24,234 nucleotides of DNA. It comes from a virus. The stretch lies in the UHGV virus genome UHGV-0124819. One strand, 5' to 3'. Position numbers and translations under genes: made by a program. This document shows positions 4,993 to 14,729 of the stretch, one piece after another. The notes under the pieces are model-generated. The model saw only the letters and a list, made by a program, of their open reading frames with translations, was not told the DNA's origin and made no database searches. Every line of letters begins with the position of its first letter. The first letter of the stretch is position 1.

Positions 4993-5846
4993 GCACCATC
5001 CTGAAATGGGCGGGAAATAAAACCGCCATTATGTCCGAACTGAAAAAGCATCTTCCTGCTGGCCCGCGACTGGTTGAACCTTTCGCGGGTTCCTGTGCAG
5101 TGATGATGGAGACGGAGTACCCCAGCTATCTTGTTGCGGATATTAATCCTGATTTAATCAACCTCTATAAAAAGGTTGCTGCTGATTGTGAATCATTTAT
5201 ATCTCGCGCCAGAGTTTTATTTGAGATCGCAAACAGGGAGGTAGCTTATTACAACATAAGGCAGGAGTTTAATTACTCAACTGAAATTACTGATTTCATG
5301 AAAGCGGTATATTTCCTGTATCTCAATCGTCACGGTTACCGTGGTTTATGTCGCTATAACAAGAGCGGGCATTTCAACATTCCCTACGGTAATTATAAAA
5401 ATCCGTATTTCCCTGAAAAAGAAATTCGCGCATTTGCAGAAAAAGCCCAGCGAGCAACGTTTATCTGCGCCAGCTTTGATGAAACGCTGGCGATGTTGAA
5501 GGCGGGGGATGTGGTGTATTGCGATCCGCCGTATGACGGTACGTTTTCCGGCTATCACACTGATGGTTTCACTGAAGATGACCAGTATCACCTGGCATCC
5601 GTTCTTGAACATCGGTCATCAGAAGGACATCCGGTCATTGTTTCTAACAGTGACACATCCCTGATCCGTTCGCTGTATCGCAATTTTACTCACCACTATA
5701 TCAAGGTAAAACGCAGCATCGGTGTGGCAGCTGGCGAGGGTAAATCAGCAACAGAAATCATTGCTGTTTCCGGGCCGCGCTGCTGGTTGGGATTTGATTA
5801 TTCGCGTGGCGTGGATAGTTCTGCCGTGTACGGAGTGCGTGCATGA
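4989..5846 (+). CDS. dam: DNA N6-adenine methyltransferase (Dam-like)
   Basis: Start ATG at 4989 overlaps the TraR stop (ATGA). Motifs KWAGNK, SAM-binding EPFAGSCAV, and catalytic DPPY (CDPPYDG). Confidence 0.9.
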
Positions 5847-8257
5847 GCCATGCTGATATGAACAACTGCAGCGGCTTTAACGAGGCCGCCGCAGCATTCT
5901 CATGGAACAGCCCGAAAAAGGCTATTAACCCTTATCTGGACCCGGCGGAAGTTGCGCCGGTTTCTGCGCTTTCAAACCTGATCACTCTGTACGCTGCCGA
6001 TAACGAGCAGGAACAACTGCGCCGCGAGGCACTGAGTGATCAGGTCTGGGAGCGTTATTTCTTTAATGAATCCCGTGATCCTGTCCAACGCGAAATGGAG
6101 CAGGATAAGCTCATTAGCCGGGCAAAGCTGGCGCATGAGCAGCAGCGTTTTAATCCGGACATGGTCATACTGGCGGACGTTAAAGCCCAGCCCTCCCATA
6201 TCAGCAAGCCGCTGATGCAACGTATTGAATACTTCAGCAGCCTGGGCAGGCCAAAGGCTTATTCCCGCTATTTGCGTGAGACGATTAAGCCATGTCTGGA
6301 ACGACTGGAGCATGTACGCGACAGTCAGCTATCCACTTCTTTTCGCTTTATGGCAAGCCATGAAGGGCTGGACGGCCTGCTGATCCTGCCTGAAATGAGT
6401 CAGGATCAGGTGAAACGCCTGTCTACTCTTGTCGCTGCGCATATGAGCATGTGTCTTGATGCCGCTTGTGGTGATTTGTACGCCACCGATGATGTTAAGC
6501 CAGAAGAAATCCGCAAGACATGGGAAAAGGTGGCAGCAGAAACCCTGCGACTGGATGTCATACCGCCTGCGTTTGAGCAACTCCGCCGGAAAAGAAACCG
6601 CCGTAAACCCGTACCCTATGAACTCATTCCGGGTTCGCTGGCGCGTATGTTGTGCGCCGACTGGTGGTATCGGAAATTATGGAAGATGCGTTGCGAATGG
6701 CGGGAAGAGCAGTTGCGTGCTGTTTGCCTGGTCAGCAAAAAAGCATCTCCCTATGTCAGCTATGAAGCCGTGATGCATAAACGTGAGCAGCGCCGTAAGT
6801 CGCTGGAGTTTTTCCGTTCTCATGAACTGGTGAACGAAGACGGCGACACGCTGGATATGGAGGACGTGGTAAACGCCAGTAGTAGCAACCCGGCGCATCG
6901 CCGCAATGAGATGATGGCATGTGTTAAAGGTCTGGAGCTTATCGCGGAAATGCGCGGTGACTGCGCCGTTTTCTACACCATCACCTGTCCGTCACGTTTC
7001 CATTCCACGCTAAATAACGGCAGGCCCAACCCAACCTGGACAAATGCGACGGTAAGACAAAGCAGTGATTATCTGGTCGGCATGTTTGCTGCATTTCGTA
7101 AGGCGATGTACAAAGCCGGATTGCGCTGGTATGGCGTGCGGGTGGCTGAGCCGCATCATGACGGTACAGTTCACTGGCACCTGTTGTGTTTTATGCGCAA
7201 AAAAGATCGCCGCGCCATTACTGCTTTGTTGCGTAAGTTTGCCATCCGTGAAGACCGCGAGGAGCTGGGTAATAACACAGGACCACGCTTTAAGTCTGAG
7301 CTGATAAACCCGCGCAAAGGTACGCCAACAAGCTACATCGCGAAATACATCAGTAAGAACATTGACGGGCGTGGTCTGGCTGGCGAGATCAGCAAGGAAA
7401 CGGGTAAATCCCTGCGTGATAACGCTGAATACGTTAATGCCTGGGCGTCTCTTCATCGTGTTCAGCAATTCCGCTTCTTTGGCATTCCGGGGCGTCAGGC
7501 TTACCGTGAACTGCGATTGCTGGCTGGTCAGGCGGCAAGGCAACAGGGGGACAAAAAAGCAGGTGCGGCGGTACTGGATAACCCACGCCTTGATGCCATC
7601 CTGGCTGCTGCTGATGCTGGTTGTTTTGCCACCTACATCATGAAGCAGGGCGGCGTACTGGTTCCCCGCAAATATCACCTCATCAGAACCGCTTATGAAA
7701 TCAACGAAGAGCCGACCGCCTATGGCGATCACGGCATTCGTATTTATGGCATCTGGTCACCCATTGCAGAGGGCAAGATCTGCACTCATGCAGTGAAGTG
7801 GAAAATGGTTCGTAAGGCCGTTGACGTTCAGGAGGCGGCAGCCGACCAGGGCGCTTGCGCCCCTTGGACTCGTGGCAATAACTGTCCCCTTGCTGAAAAT
7901 TTGAACCAACAGGAGAAAGATAAATCAGCTGATGGGGACCCCAGAACGGACATTACCCGCATGGATGACAAGGTGTTGCACGATTACCTGCACAGTATGA
8001 ACAAAAAGGAGCGCCGGGAATTGGCTGCAAGGTTACGTCTGGTGAAACCGAAACGGCGTAGAGACTACAAACAGCGAATTACAGACCATCAACGACAGCA
8101 GCTCGTCTATGAACTGAAATCCAGAGGATTTGATGGCAGCGAGAAAGAGGTCGATTTACTCCTTCGCGGCGGCAGTATTCCGTCAGGAGCAGGCCTGCGT
8201 ATCTTCTATCGGAACCAGCGTTTGCAGGAAGATGATAAGTGGCGGAACCTGTATTAA
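5843..8257 (+). CDS. A: Rolling-circle replication initiation endonuclease (P2 gpA family)
   Basis: 804 aa. HUH-type motif VHWHLLCF and tandem catalytic tyrosines YIAKYISKN. Start overlaps the dam stop (ATGA). Confidence 0.9.
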
Positions 8258-8410: not shown

Positions 8411-8599
8411 ATGCAGGACTATTTTTTGGAGTCTTTGAAGCTCCAGCGCATTGATTTTTTTCTTAAGCTTGTAGCGGCTAGTGAGTGTAGTGATGAAGAG
8501 AAGGGGCTGGCTCTGCAGTGGGTTTCTGAATTGACTGATGAACTCATGGCAAAAATCAGAAGCCACGAATACAACCGCTCAATGGATGTCATCAACTGA
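8411..8599 (+). CDS. Hypothetical small protein in the position of the 186 tum (SOS-inducible antirepressor) region
   Basis: 62-aa ORF, ATG at 8411 with SD AGGAGG at 8401-8406. Lies directly downstream of the LexA box. Confidence 0.5.
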   Translation: MQDYFLESLKLQRIDFFLKLVAASECSDEEKGLALQWVSELTDELMAKIRSHEYNRSMDVIN

Positions 8600-8609
8600 G
8601 GTGACTTTT

Positions 8610-8843
8610 ATGTGCATTGAAATAATGATCGATAAAGAGCAGAAGATTAGCCAGTCTACCCTGGACGCCCTTGAATCCGAGCTTTACCGCAATCTGCGCC
8701 CCCTGTATCCCAAAACGGTAATCCGTATCCGTAAAGGTAGCTCTAACGGTGTGGAACTGACCGGACTGCAACTGGACGAAGAAAGAAAACAAGTGATGAA
8801 AATTATGCAGAAGGTGTGGGAAGACGACAGCTGGCTGCATTGA
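8610..8843 (+). CDS. DinI-family protein (DNA-damage-inducible protein I-like)
   Basis: 77 aa, MCIEIMIDKEQ...LDALESEL...QKVWEDDSWLH. Aligns by eye over its full length with E. coli DinI (MRIEVTIAK...IDALAGEL...QETWESADDW). SD GAGGTG upstream. Confidence 0.8.
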   Translation: MCIEIMIDKEQKISQSTLDALESELYRNLRPLYPKTVIRIRKGSSNGVELTGLQLDEERKQVMKIMQKVWEDDSWLH

Positions 8844-8897: not shown

Positions 8898-8931
8898 AGG
8901 CGATGTCAATCAGATATCGCCTTGTTTTTTG
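8898..8931 (+). terminator. Intrinsic terminator after the DinI-like gene
   Basis: Stem AGGCGAT / ATCGCCT (8898-8904 / 8916-8922) followed by TGTTTTTTG. Confidence 0.55.
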
Positions 8932-8956
8932 TCAAGAAAAGAATAATAGGCTAAAA

Positions 8957-9634
8957 ATGAAAATTAATAACGTAGCGTTACCAATATCTCTTGCTGTAAT
9001 CCTAACTGGTTGCGTGCCACATGCTTCTAACCGAAATATCACTGCTATTGAAGTGGTGAAGCCTGCTATTGGGCAAAGTGCTACCGCCTACATGGGCGAT
9101 CCCATTATCACATCTGCTACTGGATTTAAAACGGACGTACTAGAACTTGGTGCGGCTAATGGTGCATTGTCTTCTATCGCTGCTGGTACATATTGCAGTG
9201 AGGGGAATGGAATTTACCGCAATTATCATAACCCTCAAGCTGTTGCGTTAAAAAATCTCTATGGGCAAATCGGTAACTATGTTGATTATGTTAGTTACGA
9301 TGCTGCAAAAAATGAGATATCACCGCCAAATGGTACTTCTTATACTGCATCAGAAATTTCTATCAAACGTGTTCCTGATGGGCTGTGTCGAGTTAGTAAC
9401 TCATTGGTTAAGACTATCGAATACAATGGAAATGCAGGCGGTGTAATGAAGTTCACCTATCGTGAATTTGCAAACGATATGGCTCGTGCAGCATTTACAA
9501 CAGATTTTTCTGTAGATTCTAAGGGAAGTGACGTTATCGCTTACAAAGGTGCCAAGTTCAAAGTGAACAAGGCTGATAACTCGTCTATTTCTTATACAAT
9601 TATTTCTGGCTTTGACAAGGCTGTCACGTTCTAG
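8957..9634 (+). CDS. Lipoprotein of unknown function (moron)
   Basis: Signal peptide MKINNVALPISLAVILTGC with lipobox LTGC. 225-aa Gly/Ser/Thr/Asn-rich mature part. AT-biased. Bracketed by terminators at 8898-8931 and 9739-9765. Confidence 0.75.
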   Translation: MKINNVALPISLAVILTGCVPHASNRNITAIEVVKPAIGQSATAYMGDPIITSATGFKTDVLELGAANGALSSIAAGTYCSEGNGIYRNYHNPQAVALKNLYGQIGNYVDYVSYDAAKNEISPPNGTSYTASEISIKRVPDGLCRVSNSLVKTIEYNGNAGGVMKFTYREFANDMARAAFTTDFSVDSKGSDVIAYKGAKFKVNKADNSSISYTIISGFDKAVTF

Positions 9635-9738
9635 GTTTCACGCTTGCTGAGTATGTTACGATTTTGCACATTCTGCATAAACGCGCATGTCTATGCTGCA
9701 TGAGATCGCATGATCGTTTGAGGATCTTTTGTGTTAAG

Positions 9739-9765
9739 GCCCGCCAGTTCTGGCGGGCTTTTGCG
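9739..9765 (+). terminator. Intrinsic terminator
   Basis: Perfect 8-bp stem GCCCGCCA / TGGCGGGC (9739-9746 / 9751-9758), loop GTTC, then TTTTGCG. Confidence 0.7.
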
Positions 9766-9807
9766 TAGATCATGCAGGTGCATGAAAACCACTACATAAA
9801 GCGGGCA

Positions 9808-9826
9808 GGCGTGGCGGGGATACGAG
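9808..9826. other. Candidate cos site (19-nt cohesive-end region)
   Basis: GGCGTGGCGGGGATACGAG begins with GGCGTGGCGGGGA, matching the first 13 nt of the 186-type cohesive end as I recall it (GGCGTGGCGGGGAAAGCAT). GC-rich element in a non-coding gap between the replication and portal gene blocks. Confidence 0.45.
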
Positions 9827-9973
9827 CGCGCGCAAGGTATAGAAACAGTCGTTTGTTTACAAACAGATACTATGATTTTCAATGTTCTTTCAAATTGTTG
9901 CTTTAAGATAGCAGGTAGATGTTTGTAGTTGTTGCGTGAACTGATAAGCTTCTACAACTATCGAGGAAAGGAT

Positions 9974-11041
9974 ATGAAGCGGCTAACTGAAGAACAAATT
10001 GAACATTCTTTGATCAGAGCAAGGAAGATTGCGAAGCGGGAGTCAAGAAAGCTTTCTGGTGGAAGACGGATGCTACAGCCCATGCGGGTATTCTCTCGTG
10101 TGAGAATACCCGCGCCTGCGTCATTGGACTTATTTAATACTAAAAATTACAAACTATTTATAGAGTTTATCACTTTAATAAGAGATTACATCAATGATGG
10201 TGAGAAAATTTTAATAGATTTCAGAAATACAAAATCTCTGAAAGCATGTGCAGTAATCGTATTGTATGCACATATTGACTTTTTACAAAGGCAAACAAAA
10301 GATAAAAATATAATTTCTATTACTACGTGCGGTTCATCCAGGGCAAATAACTGGTTTAAAATATGTGGTATTTGGGGGATTACAGGGTTTCAGCGTATAG
10401 CTGCAGATAAGCTTAATTCAATGGAAATTGTTTCCGCTGTTGCAGGCAAAACTAGAGATGATCATGAAAGTGCCGAAGCAAGACAAAAAATTAAAAATAT
10501 TCTACGTTATATAAAAGATACCATTTATGAAGGTAAGATTTCCGCTTCGGATGGTGTGAAATTATATGCAGCCTTAACTGAATCTATTAGCAATGTTGGT
10601 CTACATGCGTATTCAAATGAAGAACAGTTCTCTGAATTTATTGAGGACATTGGTAAAAGATGGTGGATATTGGCACACAAAGTCGAAGAACAACTATTTT
10701 TGATGGTGTATGATATGGGAGAAGGTATCCCAGTTACATTGGTTAAAAAAGACTTTTTCACATTTATCGCTCAGATATTTAATCCTAAGACGGATTCTGA
10801 TAAAATATTCGCGGCTGTACAGTATGGTGAGACAAGAATGAATAGTCAGAAGCATGGTAAAGGATTACCTGATATGAAAAGGTATGTTGTAGATAACCCT
10901 GAGGGGCAGTTACATATTTTTAGTGGAATGGGACGATATTCTTATGATGCTGAAAATAATGTTGAAGATAAATTTGATCTGCCATACTCCATAGGTGGAA
11001 CCCTTATTCAATGGAATGTAAGTTTGAGAGGTGCTGAATGA
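9974..11041 (+). CDS. Cassette gene 1: protein with a C-terminal GHKL-superfamily ATPase/kinase domain (RsbW/SpoIIAB-like) and an N-terminal domain of unknown function
   Basis: 355 aa from ATG 9974 (SD GAGGAAAGG). N-box-like LTESISNVGLHAY (10580-10612; compare SpoIIAB SEAVTNAIIHGY), G1-box-like YDMGEGIP (10709-10732), G2-like HGKGLPD (10853-10873). AT-rich. Confidence 0.6.
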   Translation: MKRLTEEQIEHSLIRARKIAKRESRKLSGGRRMLQPMRVFSRVRIPAPASLDLFNTKNYKLFIEFITLIRDYINDGEKILIDFRNTKSLKACAVIVLYAHIDFLQRQTKDKNIISITTCGSSRANNWFKICGIWGITGFQRIAADKLNSMEIVSAVAGKTRDDHESAEARQKIKNILRYIKDTIYEGKISASDGVKLYAALTESISNVGLHAYSNEEQFSEFIEDIGKRWWILAHKVEEQLFLMVYDMGEGIPVTLVKKDFFTFIAQIFNPKTDSDKIFAAVQYGETRMNSQKHGKGLPDMKRYVVDNPEGQLHIFSGMGRYSYDAENNVEDKFDLPYSIGGTLIQWNVSLRGAE

Positions 11042-11358
11042 AAATCAAAGAGATACATGTTGCTGAAGATTTTTCAGATGTTCCCTATGGCCGCTATGAT
11101 GAGGATGGTCCTGATAATGGACAACGTTTCCGTGAAAAGTATCTTTTGAAAGCCATCCAAGATTATGATGAGGTGCACGTGTACCTTGATGGTGCTATGG
11201 GTTATGGTTCTTCATTCTTGGAAGAGGCGTTTGGTGGACTTTATAGAACAAATAATATAGATAAAGCTATAATTAGGAAAAAATTAAAAATATTTACTGA
11301 TTTGGATTTCCTCAAGGATAGTATATGGGGATATATTTCTGATGCTAAAAAGGAGTGA
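11038..11358 (+). CDS. Cassette gene 2: small acidic protein, possibly STAS-like (anti-sigma-factor-antagonist-like, DUF4325-type)
   Basis: 106 aa. ATG overlaps the gene 1 stop (ATGA at 11038-11041). Segment VHVYLDGAMGYGSSFLEEAFGG (around 11200-11235) resembles the SpoIIAA/RsbV pattern h-h-D-x-S/G-x-h-x-h-DSSGLG. Confidence 0.5.
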   Translation: MKIKEIHVAEDFSDVPYGRYDEDGPDNGQRFREKYLLKAIQDYDEVHVYLDGAMGYGSSFLEEAFGGLYRTNNIDKAIIRKKLKIFTDLDFLKDSIWGYISDAKKE

Positions 11359-11363
11359 TGTTC

Positions 11364-11852
11364 ATGGATGAACTTCCGGTTTATCTGCGGTTATTACAAT
11401 ACCTTGCTAGTTCAGGTGTGATTGCAATTCTAACAGCCTTGATTGGTTGGGTTTTTGTTTATAGAAACTCCCGTGCGTTGCAAAAGAGGAGTGAAACATG
11501 GTCAATTGTAAAAAATGTTTCAGATAATTTAAAGGAAATTGAATCTGCATCAAGAAAGTTTTGGATACCGGGAGATTCAAAAGAAATTGATGCAATGTCA
11601 TTTCAAAATGAGATAACAGCACTTCTTGCGGAGACCGAGCGGTGGTTGAATCATCTAAAACAACGCATTAATATCGAAGGTGACTATAAACCTTTGATTG
11701 CTGATTTATTCAAAGATGCTACATCTAATATTGAAAAAGCACAGGAGTATGATAAAAGTCAAAGGACAAGAATTAGTGTATTAGTGTCAAAAAGGGCGAA
11801 AATAATTAAATCTCTAATTGATGAGTCTTATCAGAAAAAATTCTTAAAGTGA
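11364..11852 (+). CDS. Cassette gene 3: single-pass membrane protein with a C-terminal coiled-coil-like region
   Basis: Likely ATG at 11364, 9 nt after SD AAGGAG and 5 nt after the gene 2 stop. TM helix VIAILTALIGWVFVY, then a charged heptad-like Lys/Glu-rich region. AT-rich. Confidence 0.6.
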   Translation: MDELPVYLRLLQYLASSGVIAILTALIGWVFVYRNSRALQKRSETWSIVKNVSDNLKEIESASRKFWIPGDSKEIDAMSFQNEITALLAETERWLNHLKQRINIEGDYKPLIADLFKDATSNIEKAQEYDKSQRTRISVLVSKRAKIIKSLIDESYQKKFLK

Positions 11853-11862
11853 TAATTTGTTA

Positions 11863-11891
11863 CGGCACGGTAGTGCCGTAGTTTTTTTTCT
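11863..11891 (+). terminator. Intrinsic terminator closing the three-gene cassette
   Basis: Stem ACGGCAC / GTGCCGT (11863-11869 / 11874-11880), loop GGTA, then a T8 run. Confidence 0.75.
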
Positions 11892-11937
11892 TATTATGTG
11901 TTGAGCGATGGATGTCCTATTAAGTGATGTAAATGTA

Positions 11938-12963
11938 TCAGAATGAATATATTTCAAATTCTATTATTTTTTTATCAAGCCATTCATTTATCTCTCCTAA
12001 GCGTTTTTGTAATGGTATAAGTTCGTTTCGTACAAACACTTTACTTGCTTTCTCCACATCCCCAAACCCCCCAACATTATTAGGCATAATCCCCATCATC
12101 TGAGGCGGCACGCGGTGCGCTGCCATCATGTCATCCCGACTCACGTTCTTGATATTAAGAAATTCATCCTTCGCCGCGACTTCTGACAATGGGATGATCT
12201 GAAGCCCGTCCTTTTTGCCGTTAGGCGAGTACATAAACAGGTTGCGGAAGTTGCCTGGACCTTTGGCGCTTTTCATCGCGTTGCGGAGGTTGTTCACATC
12301 CTCCTGGTTTTGTGCGGCATCGGTCATGTACATGATAAAGCCCGCATGGCTGCCGTTAATGTAATACTTGCGACGGAACAGCGTGGCGGACTCGTTGAGC
12401 AGGGCTGACGGAATGGCAGAAAGATAACCGGGCAGGCCGTAGATCTCCTGGTTGATGTCCGGTTCCATCAGATGAAAGATGCTGCCTTTCGTGAACTGAT
12501 ATGGCTGCGTGGTCATACCGTATTGCACAAACCAGTAGGTATCCAGGTCTAACCCGCGTCGGGTGTATTTTGCCAGGGCAGGTTCAAGGGCGATAACTTC
12601 ACCGAAGCGGTTCGTGCGTTTCTCCAGGTAGGCGTTACCAAATACCAGATAGTCCTGCACAAAACGCGAAAAAGCCTGCTGGCTGAGCAGCGGGTGAGGG
12701 ATGTAGGTGCTGGTCAGAATGTTGCACTTTACTGCAATCGGGGAACTATGATGCACGGCAGCGCGGAAGGTGCGCGCCAGTCCGTCAAAGCTGACGGGCG
12801 GCTCATACCAGCGGTCCATCTGTACGCATTCCACATAATCCAGCAGTTCTCGGCGGTCCAGAACAGGAACGGGATCGCCGAAGCTGAATGCTTCGGCTGT
12901 AGTTTGACTTTTAAGCTGGATCTGTTTCGTCGCCGCAGTGCGGTTCTTCTTACTCTTTCCCAT
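11938..12963 (-). CDS. Q: Portal protein (P2 gpQ family)
   Basis: 341 aa, the size and position of P2 gpQ. Convergent with the cassette and immediately followed (upstream on the minus strand) by the terminase gene. Assigned by synteny and length. Confidence 0.9.
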   Translation of the reverse strand: MGKSKKNRTAATKQIQLKSQTTAEAFSFGDPVPVLDRRELLDYVECVQMDRWYEPPVSFDGLARTFRAAVHHSSPIAVKCNILTSTYIPHPLLSQQAFSRFVQDYLVFGNAYLEKRTNRFGEVIALEPALAKYTRRGLDLDTYWFVQYGMTTQPYQFTKGSIFHLMEPDINQEIYGLPGYLSAIPSALLNESATLFRRKYYINGSHAGFIMYMTDAAQNQEDVNNLRNAMKSAKGPGNFRNLFMYSPNGKKDGLQIIPLSEVAAKDEFLNIKNVSRDDMMAAHRVPPQMMGIMPNNVGGFGDVEKASKVFVRNELIPLQKRLGEINEWLDKKIIEFEIYSF

Positions 12964-14729
12964 CAAAAAATCTCCACAATATTGCTGGTATTGGCGGATT
13001 CGCCCTGCAGCGGTTCGTTAAACAGTGCGTGCATCGTTGCCCAGGCCAGATCGGCGTGGCTGGCTTCTTCGCTGCGGCTGGCTTCATAGGTCGGGCGGTT
13101 GCCACTGGCGGTGGTGGCGCGACGGATTGCCATGAATGACTGCGCAATGTCGGTGTGCCCGGCGTCAAACTCAAGACGGCGGTGGCTGATAATGTCGTAG
13201 GCCTTGAGTACCAGGGCGTTTTTAACGTTGGGGTTGTAGACAAACTCCCGGACGGCAGGAAAAAACGCTTTCACGTTCTCGTAAACCCCGTGACCAACGC
13301 CGGTTGAGTCGATGCCGATATAGGTCACGTTGTACCGTTCGGTCAGTTTTTTGATGGCGTCAGCCTGGGCGCGAAAGTCCATTCCGCGCCACTGGTGACG
13401 CTCAAGAATGCGGAACTTACCGCCCGGCACGGCTGGCGGTGCCACCACCACGCATCCGGCGCTGTCGCCGTTTTGCGTACCTTTTGCCGGGTCATAACCG
13501 ATCCACACTTCGCGCCAGCCAAACGGGCGCAGAGCCAGTGCATGAAAGTCGGTCCAGACTTCCCAGCTGTCCACCATGCACGCCTGCAGCTCGCTGAGCG
13601 GGAACACGGACGCGAGATCGTCCACGAACTCACACATCAGCAGGTTCTGGTATTCGTCCGGGCTGTATTCCATGCGTAACTGGTCGAGGTCGAACAGGTT
13701 ACATCCGCCGCGCACCGCATCTTCTACGGTGACTATCTGGCGGTATTGCCCGTCTGCGCACAGCAGGCCGGGGGCCAGATTGCTGTGGGACAGGTCGATG
13801 TCCACCTTATCGGCTTTGTTGCGCCCACGGTTGAACAGCGCACCGGACCAGAACGGATAAGCACTGTGTGTCAGACTGGATGGCGTGGAAAAATAGGTCT
13901 GTCGCCATTTCTTGTGAATAGCCATACCGGAAGCCACTTTGCGCAGCTCCTGGAATTTCGGTATCCAGAAATATTCATCCAGATACAGGTTGCCGTGATA
14001 ACTCTGGGCCGTGCGGGCATTGGTGCCGAGGAAGTAAAGCGTGGCCCCGTTGGGAAGCACCATCGGATCACCTTTCAGCTCCACCTCCACTTCTTTGGCG
14101 AAGTCGATGATGTACTGCTTAAAGACGTGGGCCTGTGCCTTGCTGGCGGAAAGGAAAATCTGGTTACGTCCGGTCAGCAGAGCGTCAATCAGGGCTTCAC
14201 GGGCAAAATAGAAGGTCGCGCCGATCTGGCGTGACTTCAACAGGTTGCGGATGCGGTTGGTTTTTCCGGCTTCCCACCAGTGGCGCTGGTAGTTGAACAT
14301 GGAGGAATGGAAGATTTCCTCCAGCTTTTCAATCTGTTCATCGGTGAAAACGTTCTTTTCCGGCTGACGACGCGGGCCTTTGTTGCGGTTGGCGACGTTA
14401 GGGTTTAAGTCGGCTTCGTTGCCGCCATTGTTAAACTTGCCGATCCGCGCGTGGCGCTCAGACTGGCGCGCCAGCAGGTCAATCTCTTTGAAATCTTTCC
14501 CTTCTTTGTGCTCCTTCATAATGAGCTGGCAGTAGCGGGCGGCGGTGGTGAGCTGCATCTGATCCAGCGGCCCATAGTCACCCCACTTGTCGCGTTTTTT
14601 CCAGCTGTGAACGGTTGCAACTTTCTCGCCCAGCATTTCAGCAATGCGGGCTACGCGGTATCCCTGAAAGTACAGCAGCATGGCCTGCCGACGGGGATCG
14701 AGATCTGCGGGTGTCAGTGTGGTGTTCAT
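12963..14729 (-). CDS. P: Terminase large (ATPase) subunit (P2 gpP family)
   Basis: 588 aa, the size and position of P2 gpP, in the Q-P operon divergent from O. Confidence 0.95.
   Translation of the reverse strand: MNTTLTPADLDPRRQAMLLYFQGYRVARIAEMLGEKVATVHSWKKRDKWGDYGPLDQMQLTTAARYCQLIMKEHKEGKDFKEIDLLARQSERHARIGKFNNGGNEADLNPNVANRNKGPRRQPEKNVFTDEQIEKLEEIFHSSMFNYQRHWWEAGKTNRIRNLLKSRQIGATFYFAREALIDALLTGRNQIFLSASKAQAHVFKQYIIDFAKEVEVELKGDPMVLPNGATLYFLGTNARTAQSYHGNLYLDEYFWIPKFQELRKVASGMAIHKKWRQTYFSTPSSLTHSAYPFWSGALFNRGRNKADKVDIDLSHSNLAPGLLCADGQYRQIVTVEDAVRGGCNLFDLDQLRMEYSPDEYQNLLMCEFVDDLASVFPLSELQACMVDSWEVWTDFHALALRPFGWREVWIGYDPAKGTQNGDSAGCVVVAPPAVPGGKFRILERHQWRGMDFRAQADAIKKLTERYNVTYIGIDSTGVGHGVYENVKAFFPAVREFVYNPNVKNALVLKAYDIISHRRLEFDAGHTDIAQSFMAIRRATTASGNRPTYEASRSEEASHADLAWATMHALFNEPLQGESANTSNIVEIF

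Follow-up and report, generated by a model that had tools for sequence, protein, structure and literature searches.

A single-pass membrane protein as candidate output of a VapKSC-like kinase/STAS cassette in a P2-like prophage

Introduction

Partner switching is the founding mechanism of pairs formed by a STAS protein and a GHKL kinase, such as SpoIIAA/SpoIIAB and RsbV/RsbW. The current work deals with a cassette of three genes (genes 1 to 3) carried by the UHGV virus genome UHGV-0124819, of which the whole stretch of 24,234 nucleotides (nt) was analyzed and is referred to as the window, and in particular with gene 3, the last gene of this cassette, which encodes a small membrane protein. The closest described counterpart of the cassette is VapKSC (Chambers et al., EMBO J 2026, PMC13373217), which consists of the kinase VapK, the STAS antitoxin VapS and the PIN toxin VapC, the latter being encoded in third position. 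VapK is a STAS-GHKL kinase for which activation by single-stranded DNA (ssDNA) was proposed, with support from a structure prediction and an F54A mutant, while VapS binds and neutralises the toxin, both activities being abolished by the phosphomimetic substitution S48E (PMC13373217). Protection by VapKSC was obtained against a single phage, Bas42, and its authors stress the response of such modules to general DNA damage (PMC13373217). In CapK/CapS, a GHKL kinase with a STAS domain likewise phosphorylates a serine of a STAS-domain partner, and an aromatic residue contacting ssDNA at the STAS/GHKL interface is indicated for both kinases (VapK F54, CapK W68; PMC13373217). Furthermore, a PIN.4 group has been described as “coupled to DUF4325” (PMC5499597), DUF4325 being the family to which the second gene of the present cassette belongs.

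The cos-proximal hotspot of P2 prophages is a reservoir of anti-phage cargo, and P2 hotspots hold non-defence cargo too, such as partition systems and toxins (Rousset et al. 2022, PMC9122126). The window is a P2/Fels-2-like prophage, and the cassette is located in this hotspot. A first-pass annotation had described gene 3 as a membrane-tethered coiled-coil protein, and as a candidate effector or sensor of a cassette built around a kinase/antagonist pair.

Results

Relationship of genes 1 and 2 to known kinase/STAS pairs

Comparison of its first two products with VapK and VapS identifies the cassette as a VapKSC-type switch in which the toxin slot is occupied by a membrane protein of an undescribed family (Table 1). 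Judged by profile alignment, gene 1 is a VapK homologue, i.e. a GHKL protein of the SpoIIAB/VapK type: its family was aligned to VapK by hhalign with a probability of 93.7% and an E value of 3e-8 over 274 columns encompassing both domains (residues 39-355 of gene 1 against 1-286 of VapK), the VapK and VapS sequences having been obtained from a machine-read PDF of the appendix to PMC13373217, with uncertain numbering of VapK. The GHKL boxes N, G1, G2 and G3 are invariant in the gene 1 family, being represented by E203/N207/H211, D247-G249 (with G251 conserved in at least 90%), G295-G297, and G342-T343 (with G341 conserved in at least 90%), respectively. Matches to Pfam HATPase_c were obtained for 8 of 21 family members, and to HATPase_c_2 for 5 of the 21. 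An AlphaFold2 model of gene 1, with a predicted local distance difference test score (pLDDT) of 83.6, retrieved SpoIIAB, CheA P4 and GyrB among its Foldseek matches, the best target coverage for the C-terminal half being that of SpoIIAB (TMt 0.69-0.72). No significant sequence relative of gene 1 was found among solved structures, where RsbW was marginal (E 0.44). The N-terminal domain is labelled STAS-like because of the alignment to VapK and of its secondary-structure pattern, and hhalign detected no similarity between this domain and gene 2.

Gene 1 also possesses an N-terminal segment that is absent from VapK. Residues 1-35 (positions 9974-10078) are predicted to form a helix with 11 lysine or arginine (K/R) residues among 34, and the segment is basic throughout the family. 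This helix may bind nucleic acid or acidic lipid, and might represent a trigger-sensing or membrane-contacting part of the protein.

Gene 2 is matched by Pfam PF14213 with an E value of 3.5e-12, as is VapS with 2.7e-17. Direct alignment of gene 2 and VapS by hhalign gave an E value of 0.036, the likeness between both proteins therefore resting on their common Pfam family, and this alignment placed S58 of gene 2 opposite S48 of VapS. The serine concerned is part of a pair located at a helix start within the motif SSF(L/I/M)(D/E)E(A/S)F(G/A)G; among 11-13 divergent gene 2 homologues, S59 never varies, and S58 is retained in at least 90% (all but one variant). A PDB sequence search returned no match for gene 2. 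Consequently, the three-gene cassette with a kinase/antagonist pair postulated by the first-pass annotation was borne out, with gene 1 as a putative kinase of the SpoIIAB/VapK type and gene 2 as a STAS-like DUF4325 protein.

The cassette thus resembles VapKSC in comprising three genes over approximately 2 kb in the order kinase-STAS-output, in the similarity of gene 1 to VapK over the STAS-like and GHKL domains, in the assignment of gene 2 and VapS to PF14213, in the position of the conserved serine of gene 2 at or beside VapS S48, in its association with mobile elements and defence islands, and in being devoid of a phosphatase gene, none being present among the open reading frames (ORFs) of the cassette. 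It differs from VapKSC in the additional basic N-terminal helix of gene 1 (approximately 38 residues) and in gene 3, which is not a PIN nuclease and bears no relation in sequence or fold to VapC. The resemblance to CapK/CapS is more restricted, in that CapS contains a winged helix-turn-helix and CapK a helix-turn-helix, whereas gene 2, being STAS only, and gene 1 have neither; moreover, the hhalign match between CapK and the gene 1 family is weak (23.5%), and the cassette stops at a terminator, with no immune operon downstream. With SpoIIAB/SpoIIAA and RsbW/RsbV the cassette shares a GHKL fold, for which SpoIIAB is the nearest match, and the location of the partner serine at the N-terminus of a helix; it differs from these in the extra STAS-like domain of gene 1 and in lacking a sigma factor and a PP2C phosphatase, for neither of which an ORF was found in the cassette or adjoining it.

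Gene 3 is the obligate third member of the unit

The three genes of the cassette share one orientation, and a terminator-like hairpin comes after the last of them. Genes 1 and 2 overlap by 4 nt, the start codon of gene 2 lying on the stop codon of gene 1 (ATGA), while the gap between genes 2 and 3 is 5 nt and the Shine-Dalgarno (SD) sequence of gene 3 lies inside the end of gene 2. Using three hidden Markov models, the order gene 1-gene 2-gene 3 was recovered in the window as well as in each of the 25 fetched loci with enough upstream DNA, one of which lies in a P2 hotspot (Gibbsiella) and another at a non-prophage site (Ignatzschineria). Among 5,426 complete Escherichia coli genomes the full cassette is present in 20, and the set of genomes carrying genes 1 and 2 is identical to that carrying gene 3; in species-representative genomes, one locus was found. 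In nine distant lineages from marine and other metagenomes, with approximately 20-35% identity, a DUF4325 gene and a gene of about 300-350 amino acids (aa) precede the gene 3 homologue wherever the contig extends that far, and several of these loci adjoin integrases. Elsewhere, the cassette adjoins repressor or integrase genes of unrelated prophages.

The full triplet is also present in the isolated, temperate Marinobacter phage AS1, as AS1_41, AS1_40 and AS1_39 (E 1e-56, 4e-26 and 1e-16, respectively). The neighbouring AS1_42, annotated as hypothetical, is read here as cI-like and adjoins the Cro/CI-family regulator AS1_43, and this placement of the triplet suggests that it is expressed in the lysogen. 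A similar trio, composed of a 293-aa protein, a DUF4325 protein and a 125-aa transmembrane (TM) protein, has been reported for Francisella phage KIRK (PMC7924643), and all three proteins of the P4-satellite system no. 69 of Rousset et al. are homologous to genes 1-3. The three genes diverge in parallel, gene 3 slightly faster than the others, and all three are under purifying selection. Gene 3 is therefore an obligate third member of the unit.

A locus with a different third gene was encountered on the Vibrio scophthalmi plasmid pVS127. Clear homologues of genes 1 and 2 are followed here by a dissimilar protein of 158 aa, with a hydrophobic N-terminus and a C-terminal TM-like segment, which matches the gene 3 family marginally. 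By its sequence features, this locus is an example of another membrane protein having taken over the output slot.

Reading frame, topology and modelled fold of gene 3

Considering the alternative starts left open by the first-pass annotation, its preference for ATG 11364 holds, as this codon is located 8 nt downstream of AAGGAG, while those at 11355 and 11358 overlap or abut the SD box. The same start is used in the PGAP annotation of E. coli D3; a 164-aa form that would fit the start at 11358 occurs in some records. A search of 5.8 billion proteins recovered 53 relatives of gene 3 at E <= 1e-37, and comparison of coding sequences yielded nonsynonymous divergences (dN) of 0.11-0.35 with saturated synonymous divergence (dS), and a dN/dS ratio (omega) of <= 0.07 where computable. 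Gene 3 is thus a real gene under purifying selection. In a protein collection clustered at 90% identity, the unrelated 106-aa gene 2 and 162-aa gene 3 products share one cluster, which may be a clustering artefact.

A profile search against 1.84 billion cluster representatives retrieved 107 proteins at E <= 1e-3, nearly all of which are 140-260 aa in length and align from the TM helix to the C-terminus. The family amounts to about 100 clusters at 50% identity and has no Pfam model: gene 3 itself had no Pfam match, and none was consistent across 48 diverse members, of which three matched Pfam Vpu. DUF2489, the name borne in UniRef by the homologue P0046, was matched neither by gene 3 nor by any of the 48, and no significant sequence relative of gene 3 was found among solved structures.

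The single N-terminal TM helix proposed in the first-pass annotation was confirmed by hydropathy and by the charge bias of the flanks. Gene 3 contains one hydrophobic segment, at residues ~14-33, with a mean Kyte-Doolittle value of 2.19, and the five best 19-residue hydropathy windows all fall within residues 10-34. The net charge changes from about -1 on the N-terminal side of the helix to +4 on its C-terminal side. Among 97 representatives of the superfamily, the 15 residues that follow the helix contain on average 3.5 K/R as compared to 0.27 before it, the C-terminal flank exceeds the N-terminal one in K/R content in 94 of the 97, and the N-terminal tail is mostly shorter than 15 residues, with a median helix start at about residue 9. 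By the positive-inside rule, this charge distribution predicts an N-out/C-in topology, with most of the protein in the cytoplasm. Small residues (G18, A21, A25 and G28) line up along one face of the helix, an arrangement compatible with its self-association; among close homologues, the two glycines are invariant and the two alanines nearly so. The most conserved stretch, residues 28-60, covers the boundary between membrane and cytoplasm and the first half of helix 1. Across 48 superfamily members with approximately 20% identity, positions G28, W29, N35, E44, W67 and T120 are conserved in at least 90%, W67 and T120 falling outside this stretch.

For the remainder of the protein, the first-pass description of some 120 residues of heptad-like coiled coil did not hold. 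AlphaFold2, run with 17 homologues, returned a model (pLDDT 87.9, predicted TM-score (pTM) 0.72) with helices at residues 19-67, 77-99, 109-128 and 131-160, the TM helix running into the first of these, so that the domain is modelled as a compact four-helix bundle continuous with the TM helix. The inter-helix sequence contains P69, which is invariant, and a G106..P110 stretch, and the best heptad register shifts between segments. An extended, uninterrupted coiled coil was therefore dropped in favour of the bundle on the grounds of the model, the heptad registers and the fold matches. A fold search of the PDB with gene 3 returned generic bundles only. In BFVD, the best fold match is an unnamed viral protein of 159 aa, a length equal to that of Marinobacter phage AS1_39; the next match, HP1 orf1, was set aside as a fold analogue, being without sequence relation to gene 3 and without kinase/STAS neighbours.

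In its layout gene 3 can be compared, as a matter of how it might work and not of descent, with the small membrane proteins that stand last in defence operons, such as the TM effectors of CBASS, Pycsar and retrons, and RexB. It differs from such abortive-infection TM effectors in that no homology is present, no nucleotide-binding domain is found, and release from a protein partner is proposed in place of a small-molecule signal. A similar functional parallel, again without homology, exists with the viroporin Vpu of HIV-1, which likewise has a TM helix at its N-terminus and then a basic juxtamembrane helix.

Occurrence of the cassette in earlier catalogues and screens

Two candidate systems in the portions of the Rousset et al. 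tables considered here correspond to the present cassette. System 61, “DUF4325”, is listed for the P2 hotspot with 68 occurrences and the remark “1 TM in protein 3” (Table S5B, PMC9122126), and system 69, “HATPase_c | DUF4325”, for the P4 hotspot with 9 occurrences and a remark including “1 TM” (Table S1B, PMC9122126). The row of system 61 prints the sequences of gene 1 of the window, with a single substitution (S121P) in the portion considered, and of gene 2, while WP_042005405 (gene 1) and WP_119743262 (gene 3) figure in arrangements of Table S5A. The third protein printed in row 61 differs, being a 214-aa protein with a single TM segment (MEPNYN...) that is weakly related to gene 3; it occurs on about 153 Escherichia contigs and had no match among phage records. 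Either row 61 mixes representatives or cassettes with a swapped third gene exist. Within these portions of the tables, systems 61 and 69 are catalogue entries described by Pfam domains only, with no mechanism and no sign of testing. The validated three-gene system of the same study was considered as a counterpart and rejected, as it is described as having “no clear predicted domain” in contrast to the clear DUF4325 match here, and as DUF4325 appears only in the catalogue tables (PMC9122126).

The DefensePredictor study cloned an E. coli operon of 1,871 bp, “VPUS”, described as “hypothetical + STAS-like + hypothetical” (PMC13092281 Table S6). This operon had been predicted as defence-like with a log-odds value of 5.75 (PMC13092281). 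VPUS, with the proteins WP_000060412.1, WP_001244589.1 and WP_000154254.1, probably shares the architecture of the present cassette and is a probable member of the family; these accession numbers did not turn up in look-ups of the protein clusters.

Discussion

The position of gene 3, the homology of its partners and the variability of the third slot among related systems make the output of the switch its most likely role. By analogy to VapKSC, we assign a probability of roughly one half to the proposal that gene 3 is the membrane effector subunit of a prophage-borne kinase/STAS switch built like VapKSC. This proposal gains support from the obligate association of gene 3 with genes 1 and 2, and from the fact that the kinase and STAS pair of VapKSC controls a toxin encoded in third position (PMC13373217). 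The third slot is filled by a PIN nuclease in VapKSC, by the TM-bundle family here and by another membrane protein in pVS127, and a constant switch with swappable third genes is the usual pattern of effectors. The absence of a phosphatase from the cassette fits a one-shot response, the cytoplasmic location predicted for the bundle would make gene 3 reachable by soluble partners, and the presence of the cassette in P2 and P4 hotspots that are rich in anti-phage systems (PMC9122126) was counted in favour of an effector. The interpretation given in the first-pass annotation stands as regards the kinase/STAS context and the obligate third gene, the coiled-coil description being the part that was abandoned.

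Such a switch could operate as follows. In the uninfected lysogen, the three proteins would be produced together from a translationally coupled operon, and the STAS protein encoded by gene 2 would keep the cytoplasmic bundle of gene 3 inactive, presumably by binding to it. A trigger linked to infection or DNA damage would then activate the STAS-GHKL kinase encoded by gene 1, which would phosphorylate the invariant serine of gene 2, and gene 2 would in turn release gene 3. Freed gene 3 might self-associate through the small-residue face of its TM helix and damage the inner membrane, a step that is suggested by the small-residue stripe and by the small TM effectors known elsewhere. The outcome would be an arrest of cell and phage alike, corresponding to abortive infection or exclusion.

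A number of observations weigh against this proposal. VPUS was scored as defensive = FALSE in a phage-panel screen (PMC13092281 Table S6), and PADLOC-DB 2.0.0 contained zero families matching genes 1-3 at E <= 0.1, in a library whose coverage of the Rousset 2022 systems was unchecked. The TM-bundle family was met only together with the kinase/STAS switch and is not known as an effector of any other system, and its polar juxtamembrane motif, which is strongly conserved, might just as well form a signalling interface. The bundle fold is generic, fitting the sensor domains of histidine kinases and of chemoreceptors no worse than it fits other proteins. Finally, no conserved aromatic residue is evident in the region IDFRNTKSLKACAV of gene 1 opposite the phenylalanines of VapK in the hhalign alignment, for which the machine-read VapK sequence and its uncertain numbering have to be taken into account.

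Several of these observations are those expected if gene 3 were the input of the system, i.e. a membrane-anchored sensor or scaffold for the kinase/STAS pair that reports phage DNA entry, depolarisation or holin action, with the output consisting of other targets phosphorylated by gene 1; as an unusual variant, gene 3 may be a membrane-anchored sensor that tells the kinase of phage DNA crossing the inner membrane. The polar juxtamembrane motif is the most conserved part of gene 3, as would be expected of a signalling interface, no member of the family was seen without the switch, the bundle resembles the four-helix bundles of sensors, and the additional basic helix of gene 1 could touch membrane or nucleic acid. 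The predicted periplasmic part is tiny, however, given the early start of the TM helix, and leaves nothing exposed for sensing of the outside, while the gene 3 bundle is predicted to be cytoplasmic, in contrast to the similar sensor bundles, which are periplasmic. Moreover, in VapKSC it is the kinase that is the proposed sensor (of ssDNA) and the third gene that is the toxin (PMC13373217), and the occurrence of unrelated third-slot proteins in sister systems would not normally be expected of a sensor that works with one fixed kinase. An input role for gene 3 is therefore considered unlikely, though it deserves to be taken seriously. An effector wired as in SpoIIAB appears quite improbable. In that arrangement, gene 1 itself would silence gene 3, unphosphorylated gene 2 would displace gene 1, and phosphorylation would keep the system off, in keeping with partner switching as the classic mechanism of STAS/GHKL pairs, with SpoIIAB as the nearest fold to the C-terminal domain of gene 1 and with the HATPase_c_2 matches. 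The nearest characterised sequence relatives are nevertheless VapK and VapS, where the STAS protein binds the toxin and S48E prevents both binding and neutralisation, and the cassette encodes no PP2C phosphatase by which unphosphorylated STAS protein could be regenerated.

It is also conceivable, at low odds, that the cassette does not serve defence at all but represents an addiction (toxin-antitoxin) module, a stress-response switch or a regulator of prophage induction, of which gene 3 is the membrane component. The lack of protection by VPUS, a probable relative, the emphasis of the VapKSC authors on general DNA damage (PMC13373217) and the partition systems and toxins housed by P2 hotspots (PMC9122126) agree with this explanation. 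Against it stand the recurrence of the family in P2 and P4 defence hotspots and beside repressor or integrase genes of unrelated prophages, and the defence-like log-odds value of the VPUS operon. In addition, negative phage screens constitute weak evidence, because VapKSC protected against Bas42 only.

If gene 3 is the effector of the cassette, the kinase/STAS pair that was described in 2026 with a nuclease toxin as its output would be a modular trigger, able to act on a membrane effector as well. Gene 3 would in that case be the founding member of an uncurated family, with neither a Pfam model nor a solved structure, that ranges over enterobacterial P2 prophages, P4 satellites, a Marinobacter phage and marine metagenomes; a function would be assigned to a recurrent, unannotated cargo of P2/P4 hotspots, and a clonable three-gene system would become available for the question of how STAS phosphorylation is converted into membrane damage. 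More tentatively, and with some doubt, the TM-and-bundle family might represent a new class of membrane effectors that is freed by a kinase-controlled STAS partner without a second messenger, the kinase/STAS pair serving as a general plug-in trigger to which prophages join interchangeable killers, be it a PIN nuclease, gene 3 or another membrane protein. Should this model be wrong, the cassette would still be a clean case of an obligate three-gene unit.

Insertion site and neighbouring sequences

The assignment of the window to the P2/Fels-2-like prophages is based on its landmark genes, namely replication gene A, a DinI-like gene, portal gene Q, terminase and capsid genes. The cassette block has a GC content of 36.6% as compared to 50.3% for the window. 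It is preceded by a 136-nt segment that is conserved in E. coli whatever cargo comes after it (Table 1).

Table 1 Features of the cassette and of its surroundings. Positions refer to the window unless a fetched locus (L028, L036) is indicated.
Feature	Position	Strand	Description
Gene 3	11364..11852	+	162 aa; last cassette gene; predicted single-pass membrane protein with cytoplasmic four-helix bundle (modelled)
Shine-Dalgarno AAGGAG of gene 3	11350..11355	+	Read from sequence; 8-nt spacer to ATG 11364
Transmembrane helix LASSGVIAILTALIGWVFVY	11403..11462	+	Gene 3 residues ~14-33; predicted by hydropathy
Most conserved stretch of gene 3, GW.F(V/I)Y.NSR.LQ.RSETW.IVKN.SD.LK.IE	11445..11543	+	Residues 28-60; invariant columns
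Cytoplasmic helical domain of gene 3	11463..11849	+	Residues 34-162; modelled up-down four-helix bundle
Gene 1	9974..11041	+	355 aa; basic N-terminal helix, STAS-like domain ~37-156, GHKL ATPase/kinase domain ~190-355
Gene 2	11038..11358	+	106 aa; STAS-like DUF4325 protein; Pfam PF14213
Ser58-Ser59 codons of gene 2	11209..11214	+	Candidate phospho-acceptor
Intrinsic-terminator-like hairpin and T-run	11859..11882	+	Operon end, 3' of gene 3
Three-gene cargo cassette, AT-rich	9836..11900	+	Between conserved 136-nt segment and portal gene Q
Conserved 136-nt segment	9700-9835		5' flank of cassette; present in 1,277 of 5,426 complete E. coli genomes
Replication gene A	5843-8257		
DinI-like gene	8538-8843		
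Portal gene Q	11938-12966	-	
AS1 triplet (Marinobacter phage)	L028 2389-4315		Directly downstream of, and on the same strand as, AS1_42
pVS127 locus (Vibrio scophthalmi plasmid)	L036 2279-4208		Gene 1 and gene 2 homologues, E 7e-52 and 2e-26

The 136-nt segment contains a terminator-like hairpin, GCCCGCCAG..CTGGCGGGC, followed by a T-run at about 9740-9768, and a GC-rich run, GGCGTGGCGGGGATACGAG, at about 9809-9827, which resembles a P2/186-type cos end; the P2 cos 19-mer gave no match with up to three mismatches allowed. Further upstream, an ORF of 243 aa at 8903-9634 encodes a protein with a lipoprotein-like N-terminus and no Pfam or PADLOC match. Its DNA is approximately 99% identical in Fels-2, Salmonella RE2010 and many Klebsiella P2-like phages. 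Most of the E. coli genomes carrying the cassette lack this ORF, their match to the window beginning at 9685. Because of this absence, the hotspot is regarded as a mosaic whose pieces move independently of one another. Two NCTC strains are the only complete genomes that match across the 8903-9634 ORF, and an IS1A element lies inside the matched region.

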